A stretch of DNA of 52,665 bases from a virus (lineage: Duplodnaviria > Heunggongvirae > Uroviricota > Caudoviricetes). The DNA lies in the IMG/VR virus record IMGVR_UViG_3300036856_000037; one strand, given 5' to 3'. Below are positions 3,440-31,209 of the stretch, piece by piece (positions within the stretch are counted from its first letter, which is position 1; each line of letters starts with the position of its first letter). Made by a program: the position numbers and the translations under genes. The notes below the pieces were generated by a model. That model was not told the origin of the DNA. It worked only from the letters and a program-made list of their open reading frames with translations, and did no database searches.

Positions 3440-3844
3440 ATGGGAGACCGCGCCAACATCTACCTACTCGACACTGAAGACGGGTCGGCAGGGATGTTTG
3501 TGTACACGCACTGGAAGGGGGATTCCTGGCCGCGCGAGCTACAGCAGGCTTTGGACCTCGGCGAGGCTCGATGGGGTGACCCGCAGTACCTGGCGCGCTT
3601 CATCGTCACCCATGTCTTCAAGGACCTCGACGGCCTGACAGGCGGCGGACTCTCCACCCAGATAGGGGACAACGAATACCCCATCCTGTGCGTCGATCTC
3701 CTCAACGACAAGGTCGGGCTGTGTGACCCACACATCGACCCTGGCAACCGAGATAACTGGACCTGCGTCATGTCATTCGCTCACTACGTCGCCATTGATG
3801 ATGTCGACTGGGAAGACTTCGCCACGCATCAGATTGAGGCCTGA
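3440..3844 (+). CDS. hypothetical protein
   Basis: GGAGG RBS before ATG 3440; MGDRANI...YTHW. Confidence 0.7.
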   Translation: MGDRANIYLLDTEDGSAGMFVYTHWKGDSWPRELQQALDLGEARWGDPQYLARFIVTHVFKDLDGLTGGGLSTQIGDNEYPILCVDLLNDKVGLCDPHIDPGNRDNWTCVMSFAHYVAIDDVDWEDFATHQIEA

Positions 3845-5305: not shown

Positions 5306-5481
5306 GCAAAGGTTCCAATACCCCCGGCAAGACGCCGTATCAGGCGGCCCGCGCCATCGCGGCAAAGGATCGCCAGGAGCGTCGTGACCAGCGTCCCGTT
5401 GAGGAGCAACTGGGCCTGCTTAGCGAGCGACCAGGCAAGTCCGAACGTGAGCGCAAGCGTCTCGAGAAGTTGCTCGACTAG
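5302..5481 (+). CDS. small basic hypothetical protein
   Basis: GGAGG RBS, GTGA overlap. Confidence 0.55.
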   Translation: MSKGSNTPGKTPYQAARAIAAKDRQERRDQRPVEEQLGLLSERPGKSERERKRLEKLLD

Positions 5482-5556
5482 TGCGCCCGGTGGGATTCGA
5501 ACCCACACCTGGAGGGGGTTTAAGCCCCTTGCCTGCTGCCGTTGGGCTACGAGCGC
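5482..5556 (-). tRNA. tRNA-Leu(TAA), short variable loop
   Basis: cloverleaf; anticodon arm AGGGG-CTTAAAC-CCCCT; TTCGAAT T-loop. Confidence 0.9.
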
Positions 5557-5901
5557 TTATTCCTCAATCCAGTAACCGCCGCGCCGTACCTCAGTCTTGA
5601 GGTTACGTCGGCCGAGTGCCATCTCCCTCTGGTTCAACTCAGCGATGGCTAACTGCTCCTCTCCCAGCTGTCGGCGCAGTCAAACCTTGAAGGTGTTGCT
5701 CTCTGCCATCCGGCGAAACGCCGTCACCTTGTTCTGCAACTGACTGCGCTGCTCTTGGCTCTCGCCTACTGCACCCGAGGCTCGGTGCACGATACGCACG
5801 GCAGTGTCCCGCTTATTACGGTTCTGGCCGCCTTTGCCACTGCCCCGCTTGGTCTGCACATTGCAGTCCTTGAGCGTGACCGACAGAACTTTCTCTTTCA
5901 T
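5557..5901 (-). CDS. GGQ peptide-chain release factor-like (ArfB/RF-1 domain) protein with an in-frame TGA at codon 74
   Basis: GSGKGGQNRNKRDTAVRIVH motif; frame stays open for 40 codons past TGA (5680-5682) to TAA at 5557. Confidence 0.85.
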
Positions 5902-6119
5902 CGCATCCTCTCAATAGATGGCAGGCTGTTGCGGTTGAGTCGCTGGTGTTCCTTGAGGAAGTCCTCAGGGACATCATGGGAGAAGACCTCTGCCACGTTC
6001 CACCACTCACGCGACGGTAAGAGCTCGACACTGACGCCAACCTTGGCGCCCCGCGCTTCAATCCAGCCGGTGGTCTCCGCGTTGTCCCGACGTAATCGGC
6101 ACTGAAAATATTGCTTCAT
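5898..6119 (-). CDS. hypothetical protein (73 aa, two TTA codons)
   Basis: ATG just after tRNA-Leu(CAA); ATGA overlap with RF gene. Confidence 0.7.
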   Translation of the reverse strand: MKQYFQCRLRRDNAETTGWIEARGAKVGVSVELLPSREWWNVAEVFSHDVPEDFLKEHQRLNRNSLPSIERMR

Positions 6120-6120
6120 G

Positions 6121-6201
6121 TGCCCGAGGTGAGATTCGAACTCACACGTCCGAGGACACCGCAGTTTGAATGCGGCGCGTCTTCCGTTCCGCCACACGGG
6201 C
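6121..6201 (-). tRNA. tRNA-Leu(CAA), long variable arm
   Basis: CCGCA-TTCAAAC-TGCGG anticodon arm. Confidence 0.92.
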
Positions 6202-6212
6202 TGGTGCCGTGA

Positions 6213-6279
6213 TGCCCGAGCGGGACTCAAACCCGCAACCGCCCGCGTCCAGGCCGCTCTATCAATTGGCGTACCGGGC
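6213..6279 (-). ncRNA. tRNA-like RNA with a 4-nt loop in place of the anticodon loop
   Basis: 6-bp acceptor, D-like arm, GCCTG-GACG-CGGGC, T arm GCGGG-TTTGAGT-CCCGC, A73. Confidence 0.6.
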
Positions 6280-6288
6280 ATCACTGCG

Positions 6289-6362
6289 TGCTCCCCGTGA
6301 GACTCGAACTCACACTGAATGGCCCCTCAGACCATTGCCTCTGCCGATTGGGCTAGAGGAGC
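6289..6362 (-). tRNA. tRNA-Leu(GAG), short variable loop
   Basis: ATGGT-CTGAGGG-GCCAT anticodon arm. Confidence 0.9.
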
Positions 6363-6363
6363 A

Positions 6364-6426
6364 TGCCCAGCGCGGGACTTCAACCCGCCTCCCACTCCCA
6401 CATAAACGCAACGTCTAATAGTGGGC
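6364..6426 (-). pseudogene. tRNA remnant/minihelix (acceptor + T arm only)
   Basis: GCCCA.../TGGGC-A acceptor; GCGGG-TTGAAGT-CCCGC T arm; no D or anticodon arm. Confidence 0.45.
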
Positions 6427-6446
6427 GGCTCTACACCACCAGGGCG

Positions 6447-6530
6447 TACCCGAGGTGAGATTCGAACTCACACGTCCGAAGACACTGGTCCCTGAAGCCA
6501 GCGCGTCTGCCGAAATTCCGCCACACGGGC
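6447..6530 (-). tRNA. tRNA-Leu(CAG)
   Basis: CTGGC-TTCAGGG-ACCAG; long variable arm. Confidence 0.92.
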
Positions 6531-6545
6531 ATTGTTAAGTTGTTT

Positions 6546-6637
6546 TGGTGGAGGGCGGAGGTCATGCTCCCCAAGCTCCATTACGGCTTCCCGGGTTTCG
6601 AATCCGGTCGCAGGACTATCCCGCTGCTTCACCCTCC
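6546..6637 (-). tRNA. tRNA-Ser(CGA), aberrant T-loop
   Basis: GGAGGGT/GCCCTCC-ACCA; CCGGA-TTCGAAA-CCCGG; long V arm; T-loop AGCATGA. Confidence 0.75.
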
Positions 6638-6638
6638 G

Positions 6639-6725
6639 CGGAGGGCTGAGGAATTGAACCCCAAGCAGATTAGGCTCGTACGCGGTTAGCAACCGGACTC
6701 CAGCGACCAGCCGGAATAGCCCTCC
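6639..6725 (-). tRNA. tRNA-Ser(GCT)
   Basis: GGAGGGC/GCCCTCC-G; loop TTGCTAA; long V arm. Confidence 0.85.
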
Positions 6726-14316: not shown

Positions 14317-14355
14317 ATGAGGCGCTCTCCCCTCGGGTATATCTCCGGGGTGTAG
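14317..14355 (+). CDS. candidate leader peptide of the Pro/Trp/Tyr tRNA cluster (MRRSPLGYISGV)
   Basis: M-R start; CCC and TAT codons; ends inside tRNA-Pro; no SD, no Trp codon. Confidence 0.35.
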   Translation: MRRSPLGYISGV

Positions 14356-14421
14356 GGAAGTACGGTATCCCGCCTCATTTGGGATGAGGAAAACGCAGGT
14401 TCGAATCCTGCCTCCCCGACC
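14346..14421 (+). tRNA. tRNA-Pro(TGG)
   Basis: CCTCA-TTTGGGA-TGAGG. Confidence 0.92.
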
Positions 14422-14448
14422 TAAGCTCAAGCCCTTCTGCTCACCAAT

Positions 14449-14524
14449 AGGGGTGTAGCTCAGCGGCTAGAGCAGCGGCCTCCAAAACCGCCGGTCAAGG
14501 GTTCGAGTCCCTTCACCCCTGCCA
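14449..14524 (+). tRNA. tRNA-Trp(CCA)
   Basis: GCGGC-CTCCAAA-ACCGC (C31.A39 mismatch); encoded CCA. Confidence 0.92.
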
Positions 14525-14544
14525 CGTCAAGCCTTTCACTTCAT

Positions 14545-14626
14545 GCCGGCACCTGTTCATGCGGCGAGGACAGCGGACTGTAAATCCGTGGCGAAAGCTG
14601 TGCAGGTCCGACTCCTGCTGCCGGTA
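14545..14626 (+). tRNA. tRNA-Tyr(GTA)
   Basis: GCGGA-CTGTAAA-TCCGT; long V arm; T-loop TCCGACT. Confidence 0.85.
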
Positions 14627-14797
14627 CTCAACCCTGATACGGATGGCGCCGCTCTGTATGGCTGACTGGCCCACAGATGTCGCAGTGTCCCCGCATCGTG
14701 TAGGTATGCGCCGCGCCCCACTCCTCGCGGGTGTGGACGGTGAAGCTGAGATGCGGACACAGGTAACCCCTGAGCGTCACCGGGTCGGAGAACATAG

Positions 14798-30537: not shown

Positions 30538-30819
30538 ATGACCTCCTATAACAACGGGCTCGTCCAGGTGGTCAGCGGCTCACCGACGCTGATCGTCACG
30601 GTGGCGTCGGAGAACGGTGGGGTGCTTATCCAGAACGTCGGCAACGCGCTGGTGTTCCTCGGTGGACCCACCGTGACCTCCAGCGGCGCCAACCAGGGCG
30701 TCAGCGTCGCCGCGGGCGCCACCCTCCTGGTCCCCAGCGTCGGCGGACAGACCAACGCGCTCTACGGCGTCACCGCCGCGACAGCACAAAACGTGGCGTT
30801 TCTGATGCCCCAGCGTTGA
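30538..30819 (+). CDS. small beta-strand protein (virion accessory candidate)
   Basis: G/V/T/N-rich, IQNVG..VFLGG. Confidence 0.65.
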   Translation: MTSYNNGLVQVVSGSPTLIVTVASENGGVLIQNVGNALVFLGGPTVTSSGANQGVSVAAGATLLVPSVGGQTNALYGVTAATAQNVAFLMPQR

Positions 30820-30840: not shown

Positions 30841-31209
30841 ATGTCGATGCCCGCTGTGCCAGCTCCACCGGCATTCGATTCCACCGGGACATTCCTGACA
30901 GGCATCGCCAACCAGCAGGATGAAGACGGGTTTTTCACCCTCCCACGTACCATCGCGTCGGGGTCCATCATCGGCGTTGAGGACTGCCCGCCGGTGTATG
31001 ACTTGGTCGGCAATCAGTACTCACAGGTCAACGTCATCGTGTCGGGCCAGAGCCTGGGGTTCGTCAACGCAGAGTATGAGCTTATCCTGGCGCAGTGGCA
31101 GACGGTGGCGGCGGCATTCATCTCCACTCCCACAGGCACCCCGGCAGACGTCACCGGCCTCTACCGCGCGGTGCAGTCACTCGAGGCGCTCGAGCCTCCA
31201 CAGGAATGA
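30841..31209 (+). CDS. hypothetical protein (virion accessory candidate)
   Basis: 122 aa ORF in operon. Confidence 0.6.
   Translation: MSMPAVPAPPAFDSTGTFLTGIANQQDEDGFFTLPRTIASGSIIGVEDCPPVYDLVGNQYSQVNVIVSGQSLGFVNAEYELILAQWQTVAAAFISTPTGTPADVTGLYRAVQSLEALEPPQE

Follow-up and report, generated by a model that had tools for sequence, protein, structure and literature searches.

The window analysed here, a stretch of 52,665 nucleotides (52.7 kb of a 116.7-kb contig), is phage-like DNA with 61% GC and 37 tRNA genes; no near-identical record was found for it among sequenced phages, and megablast of the region against the phage collection returned 0 matches. On its minus strand (5557–5901) it carries a gene whose translation is that of a release factor-like GGQ protein interrupted by an in-frame TGA: 73 residues ending in SNTFKV are followed by the TGA, by 40 further codons and by a TAA. 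These elements had been described in an earlier note made from the sequence alone, and all were found as it had written them. The question is whether the gene is broken, whether the 73-residue protein is its true product, or whether the UGA is read through by some of the ribosomes. By taking into account the conservation of the stop, of its flanking bases and of the frame behind it, we consider it probable that selected, context-driven UGA readthrough takes place at a weak-termination UGA that stands in place of the codon of an invariant Trp (Trp74), the inserted residue being presumably Trp itself. Programmed UGA readthrough is a known phenomenon; what is new here is the unusual gene and the unusually strong comparative support, and in searches of the literature neither this readthrough nor what the family does was found described.

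Along the minus strand, an SD-like GAGAGGA (5906..5912), putative in function, lies 4 nt upstream of the ATG (5901–5899) that opens the head of the gene (codons 1–73, 5683..5901), in which the GGQ motif occupies residues 24–26. The candidate recoding site, GTT-TGA-CTG (5677..5685), has the TGA at 5680–5682, and the tail of 40 in-frame codons (5560..5679), homologous to the C-terminus of the homologues with TGG, leads to the TAA (5557..5559) that ends the full-length ORF. That the tail ends exactly at a tRNA-Leu(taa), as had been remarked, holds to the nucleotide, since ARAGORN places the start of this tRNA (5481..5556, same strand) at 5556, directly abutting the TAA.

The head was recognised by the Pfam RF-1 model (PF00472) with 60.3 bits (cut-off 35; E 2e-16) and an intact GGQ loop, and in NCBIfam its GGQ core was closest to domain 3 of prfB, prfA and prfH. 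With Trp placed at the TGA, the 114-aa read-through protein matched phrog_3122 over residues 2–113 (E 2.8e-48), a family annotated as 'RF-1 domain peptide chain release factor', and was found to be 67–70% identical, over the full length, to the approximately 118-aa proteins of more than 200 cluster C mycobacteriophages (Bixzunavirus). The AlphaFold2 model (mean pLDDT 80) is made of the GGQ core, a long helix (residues 69–96) starting just ahead of residue 74, and a terminal beta-hairpin; Foldseek matched it to domain 3 of RF1, RF2 and mtRF1, to PrfH and to mtRF-R (7a5h_C).

The earlier note had taken the tail to be helical and basic, and the product of readthrough to be a full ArfB-like factor. 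The helix is indeed modelled, and readthrough would yield the true C-terminus of the family and a full-length factor; the remaining attributes had to be given up, with 8 Lys and Arg versus 7 Asp and Glu residues in the tail, which is therefore not basic, and with the ArfB model NF006718 reaching 26.8 bits versus a cut-off of 100, over residues 6–39 only. With ArfB, ICT1 and mtRF-R the protein shares a stand-alone, codon-independent GGQ domain lacking domains 2 and 4. In ArfB, a basic C-terminal tail probes the empty mRNA channel, whereas here the tail ends in a beta-hairpin, and the best matches are to domain 3 of RF1, RF2 and mtRF1, and to PrfH. As judged from these profile and model comparisons, the gene encodes a GGQ factor that stands alone, belongs to the actinobacteriophage family phrog_3122, is not ArfB, and has a putative activity of the peptidyl-tRNA hydrolase type. 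The family members of cluster C/M mycobacteriophages (Bixzunavirus gp202-like) resemble it in the GGQ core, the F-x-x-W element, the long helix, the terminal hairpin and the association with a tRNA array. Unlike the window gene, the cultured members have TGG, and the Bixzunavirus gene lies between those for DnaE and RecA, not in a tRNA-Leu array.

The F-x-x-W element had been put forward in the earlier note, and it was borne out when the window read-through protein, with the TGA taken as W, was aligned to 37 full-length homologues, both F71 and W74 being invariant. The window gene has F71, and its tail bears the family motif NLKTEV..GG.W (N-L-K-x-E...G-x-W); codon 74 is TGA, so that the family feature W74 hinges on UGA being read as Trp. 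At the aligned codon the Bixzunavirus genes have TGG. An in-frame TGA was found there in at least 11 distinct sequences from independent metagenome assemblies, the closest relatives of the window gene among them: nine fall in one clade (the window itself, L018/L019, L020/L021, L022, L023, L024, L181, L182 and L183) and two, the IMG/VR contigs L112 and L157, in other subfamilies. The TGA-bearing sequences were drawn from NCBI, JGI, ENA, Logan and IMG/VR assemblies of different samples. A comparison of homologues for TGA versus TGG had been proposed as a check, and its outcome favours the reading given in the note, the nearest homologues being found to carry TGA. Neither TAA nor TAG occurs at codon 74 among the TGA and TGG genes compared, the stop being always TGA.

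A protein search brought 14 further homologues that end at exactly this residue (12 of 73 aa, two with N-terminal extensions), with 85–93% identity to the window protein over 73 residues; eight of the stop-at-73 homologues are known as proteins only (six of 73 aa, two N-terminally extended). No TGA was found at this position in cultured phages. WXIN and Nanosmite had appeared as split genes, but the split was present only in the match table and their sequences are full-length TGG genes. A scan of genome contigs for relatives returned two distant bacterial matches only. TGG and TGA differ by one base, and the earlier note had considered a nonsense mutation or a sequencing error equally possible. 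A sequencing or assembly error, or a recent nonsense mutation leaving a pseudogene, may by now be regarded as excluded to near certainty, given a TGA shared by at least 11 independent assemblies with synonymous sites near saturation, flanking bases that co-vary with the TGA, and purifying selection on the tail.

The latter is documented as follows. Of the 11 TGA sequences, 10 keep the 0 frame open for 31–55 codons behind the TGA, the exception being L182, whose contig ends before any stop. Synonymous divergence among clade members is approximately one change per site (near saturation), so that an untranslated tail would by now have accumulated stops and frameshifts; none are seen, the chance of a 40-codon frame staying open being 0.29 per sequence. 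For four phylogenetically independent pairs, the tail gave pN 0.18 and pS 0.55 (pN/pS 0.33, p = 6.6e-9), with synonymous changes accounting for 51% of all changes versus 26% expected; for comparison, the head gave pN 0.11 and pS 0.60. An in-frame stop is thus kept in diverged relatives together with purifying selection on the downstream frame, as required of a readthrough gene, and these substitution patterns indicate that the tail is translated often enough to feel such selection. The terminal motif of the family is kept by the full-length tails, which L020/L021 and the contig-cut L182 lack. The L020/L021 tail is shorter (30 codons, without the hairpin), as is that of the TGG protein P0003, so that some of the tail can be dispensed with.

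The genomic setting of the gene also bears on where it ends. The gene lies in a conserved tRNA-Ser/tRNA-Leu array (window 5481–6725, minus strand), with tRNA-Leu(cag) (6446–6530), tRNA-Leu(caa) (6120–6201) and tRNA-Leu(gag) (6288–6362) upstream of it and tRNA-Leu(taa) downstream, and the same arrangement was found in L018, L022, L023, L182, L183 and L184. The end of the ORF abuts or nearly abuts tRNA-Leu(taa) in L023, L183, L018 and the TGG gene of L184, and overlaps the start of the tRNA by approximately 10 nt in L022. As the ORF end lies at the 5' end of the tRNA, or a few bases from it, in most loci, the tail marks the true end of the gene. The TTA codon that the earlier note had pointed to in the tail, as cognate to the adjacent tRNA, is present; a conserved link to tRNA-Leu(taa) is not, the relatives having CTC, TTG or CTG.

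These data can be set against a true truncation, in which the 73-aa core would be the sole functional product and the downstream frame would be decaying or kept for some non-coding reason. Gene callers do annotate 73-aa proteins in all these assemblies, the GGQ core alone does match PF00472, and a PHROG of short RF-1 proteins, phrog_20323, exists with a profile length of 73. However, a pN/pS of 0.33 at a pS of 0.55, the lack of any stop or frameshift over 31–55 codons in 10 sequences that retain NLKTEV..GG.W, the toggling of TGG and TGA inside the clade, the locking of the full-length ORF end to the tRNA start and the lack of a conserved RNA structure that would explain the conservation together make truncation quite an improbable reading.

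The toggling is seen in a clade with 100/99 support, which contains 17 stop-bearing genes and three TGG genes (P0002, P0003 and P0014), so that TGA and TGG have been exchanged within it. L112 (TGA) is sister to L109 (TGG) with 100% support at 83% identity, and the well-supported branches of the 95-row tree require at least three changes of state between TGA and TGG. As read from the tree, the family has gained TGA, or gone back from it, on three occasions or more, and the stop is both real and old, with convergence in at least three lineages.

The bases that surround the stop differ between the two groups of genes. The base at position −1 is T in 10 of 10 distinct TGA genes versus one of 37 GC-rich TGG homologues (Fisher p = 2e-9), and it is contributed by four different preceding codons, all ending in T (GTT, GGT, CTT and ACT). 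Position +4 is C in all 10 TGA genes, the next codon being always CTG or CTA, and the shared context is NNT-TGA-CTR. At the ordinary TGA gene ends of the window, T is found at −1 in one case out of 27, the overall frequency of third-position T being 13%. A precedes the TGA in 14 of these 27 gene ends, versus 10% third-position A overall, which in part reflects ATGA start-stop overlaps. A TGA followed by C is a weak termination signal (Poole 1995, as cited in a passage of bioRxiv 10.1101/2024.09.24.614795), which is also used by prfB (bioRxiv 10.1101/2024.09.24.614795). All 10 genes thus combine U at −1 with C after the UGA, i.e. a leaky stop context. No stimulatory RNA element was found 3' of the stop, where RNAalifold gave a consensus of −2.2 kcal/mol without any supported helix, and this lack of conserved structure argues against a SECIS or a readthrough stimulator. 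The conserved TTGACT could have some other role at the DNA level; a scan for sigma-70 promoters found none with this sequence as the −35 box, there being no −10 element at 16–18 nt.

In the mechanism that we propose, most ribosomes would stop at the UGA through the action of host RF2, releasing the 73-aa GGQ core as the major product. In a minority of cases, tRNA-Trp(CCA) would read the UGA by near-cognate C.A decoding, in competition with host RF2, inserting Trp, i.e. the residue that the fold requires, and translation would proceed through 40 more codons to the TAA, to give the 114-aa full-length factor as the minor product. Near-cognate decoding by tRNA-Trp would also account for the free interchange of TGA with TGG and for the absence of any stop other than TGA. 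As to the purpose of such an arrangement, the tRNA array around the gene is probably heavily transcribed, and a leaky stop, the readthrough of which could be very low, would hold the full-length factor to a small fraction of a strongly expressed message. Most likely, the full-length factor would thereby be kept low and its level tied to RF2 activity versus the supply of tRNA-Trp.

Other forms of recoding would act on the same codon. UGA is also the selenocysteine codon, A-to-I editing of UGA to UGI would yield a Trp codon, a prfB-like +1 frameshift could be invoked for L182 and L157, which read CTT-TGA-C, the slippery core of prfB, and UGA could be Trp throughout the genome. Taken together, these possibilities are very improbable. 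For selenocysteine, there is no SECIS-like hairpin in the weak consensus fold, and the homologues have Trp, not Cys, at this position. For a +1 frameshift, the SD-like AGGGGG of prfB is absent, the preceding codon may be GTT, GGT, ACT or CTT, the conserved tail of the family is found in the 0 frame, and the +1 frame of L182 stops after 11 codons, as read by eye from the codon table. The motif edited by TadA is U-A-C-G, whereas the site here is G-A-C-U. A change of the genetic code is contradicted by TGA being the commonest gene end, often in ATGA or GTGA overlaps: it ends 38 of the 73 crude ORFs of the window, and the sequence after those stops looks non-coding. In the window, only the GGQ gene has its stop followed, in frame, by coding-like sequence that does not belong to the gene behind it. 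A second readthrough candidate (30538–30819, plus strand), with a TGA and 129 in-frame codons behind it, was discarded, the extension being the ordinary next gene, with its ATG at 30842, 22 nt further on.

For readthrough by tRNA-Trp, which remains the preferred reading, a precedent is the coat/A1 gene of the RNA phage Q-beta, in which a leaky UGA is read by tRNA-Trp. The two cases have in common an in-frame UGA in a phage gene, decoding expected to be by near-cognate tRNA-Trp, the lack of a large RNA structure, and a major short and a minor extended product from one ORF, here as a prediction. In Q-beta, however, readthrough adds a new domain past the natural end of the coat protein, whereas here the UGA sits at an invariant internal Trp of a single-domain protein of dsDNA phages, and readthrough would restore the ancestral protein. 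The convergent origin and the fixed NNU-UGA-CUR context also set the present genes apart.

With prfB, the gene for RF2, the similarity is that of a release factor-family gene with an in-frame UGA preceded by U and followed by C, whose output would follow the efficiency of RF2 termination (bioRxiv 10.1101/2024.09.24.614795). In contrast to the present case, prfB relies on a CUU-U slippery site, on its SD-like element and on a +1 shift, with RF2 sensing its own stop codon; here the SD-like element is missing, the continuation is in the 0 frame, and domains that read codons are absent from the protein, so that any feedback would run through host RF2.

Selected stop-codon readthrough is backed by good evidence in very few instances from bacteria and dsDNA phages, and the present one would be peculiar in that the stop replaces an invariant Trp, the readthrough product being therefore the ancestral protein. 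The minimal context U-UGA-CUR, without RNA structure, would represent a short, portable sequence for leakiness, and these genes would offer a natural system for the competition between RF2 and tRNA-Trp in high-GC hosts. The presence of a release factor homologue in a tRNA array makes a link between termination efficiency and expression of a rescue factor testable. On the practical side, gene callers cut these genes to 73 aa, and annotation pipelines label them as pseudogenes or short proteins.

A decoder dedicated to this UGA may also be envisaged, with the full-length factor being made only once the phage tRNA set is expressed, i.e. as a tRNA-gated switch. The window encodes a tRNA-Trp(cca) (14449..14524, plus strand), a candidate UGA decoder with a C31.A39 mismatch, a 4-bp anticodon stem and a 9-nt loop, and approximately 15 of the 22 IMG/VR contigs that match its anticodon arm (L198–L219), from diverse phages, have a tRNA-Trp with C31.A39. 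The TGA-bearing phage G002 (L191, 118,920 bp) also encodes tRNA-Trp(CCA), within an array of 37 tRNAs to which one outlying tRNA is to be added, whereas the array of 27 tRNAs of the TGG phage G005 (L192, 118,922 bp) has no tRNA-Trp; both contigs are complete, and their GGQ genes are distantly related. A tRNA-Trp(CCA) whose stem has 4 bp, as known in Blastocrithidia and in bacteria, was reported to raise UGA readthrough approximately 2.5-fold in E. coli (PMC13092985, 2026), and the window tRNA resembles it in having four Watson-Crick pairs in the anticodon stem. However, the variant of that study is unpaired at 27:43, at the top of the stem, whereas the mismatch of the window is at 31:39, at the bottom, a class that was noted there but explicitly left unstudied (PMC13092985). 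The feature is also missing from G002, whose stem has five pairs with a U31.G39 wobble, and TGG-bearing Bixzunavirus, too, has odd tRNA-Trp stems. No tRNA(UCA) was found among the 37 tRNAs of the window (52.7 kb of the 116.7-kb contig) or the 38 of G002, no tRNA-Trp lies within 10 kb of the GGQ gene in L185, L186 and L187, and strong decoding of UGA would harm the many genes that end in TGA. A dedicated decoder is thus unlikely, and the stem defect of the window tRNA-Trp is to be taken as a lead only, not as evidence, for readthrough. The idea that a 4-bp-stem tRNA-Trp accompanies the TGA was likewise dropped, given the five pairs of G002 and the L018/L021 loci, which are without tRNA-Trp within 10 kb. 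The TGG-bearing Mycobacterium phage BackyardAgain (L190) has a 71-nt tRNA-Trp (2309–2379) with an apparent A27.A43 mismatch atop the anticodon stem, and also a tRNA(cta) (3521–3594) annotated as tRNA-Pyl, which is amber suppressor-like.

The arrangement of the locus suggests that the GGQ gene is co-transcribed with the tRNAs and that the 3' end of its mRNA is made by RNase P, whose cleavage at the abutting tRNA would leave an mRNA ending at its own stop codon. As an extension of the readthrough reading that we hold to be possible but doubtful, the UGA would make the full-length GGQ factor a sensor of termination capacity: limiting RF2 or abundant phage tRNA-Trp would lead to more factor, which would relieve stalled ribosomes, as a readthrough analogue of prfB autoregulation that would have converged at least three times. 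The weakened C31.A39 stem of the window tRNA-Trp would then contribute to the response, and the stalls might occur at the many UGA stops of the phage or at mRNA ends cut by tRNA processing.

Some further features of these loci were noted. In L186, a gene for a PTH2 peptidyl-tRNA hydrolase (6376–6717) lies 3.3 kb upstream of the GGQ gene. ARAGORN also reported a tRNA-like gene with a 2-nt 'anticodon' (ga) at L186:15203–15272 and L187:14088–14157, in the phage with the short-tailed TGA gene. Finally, the tRNA order Pro(tgg)-Trp(cca)-Tyr(gta) is common to Bixzunavirus and the window (14346–14627, plus strand; L190:2220–2467, L188), which suggests that the two tRNA arrays are orthologous despite the absence of nucleotide similarity.
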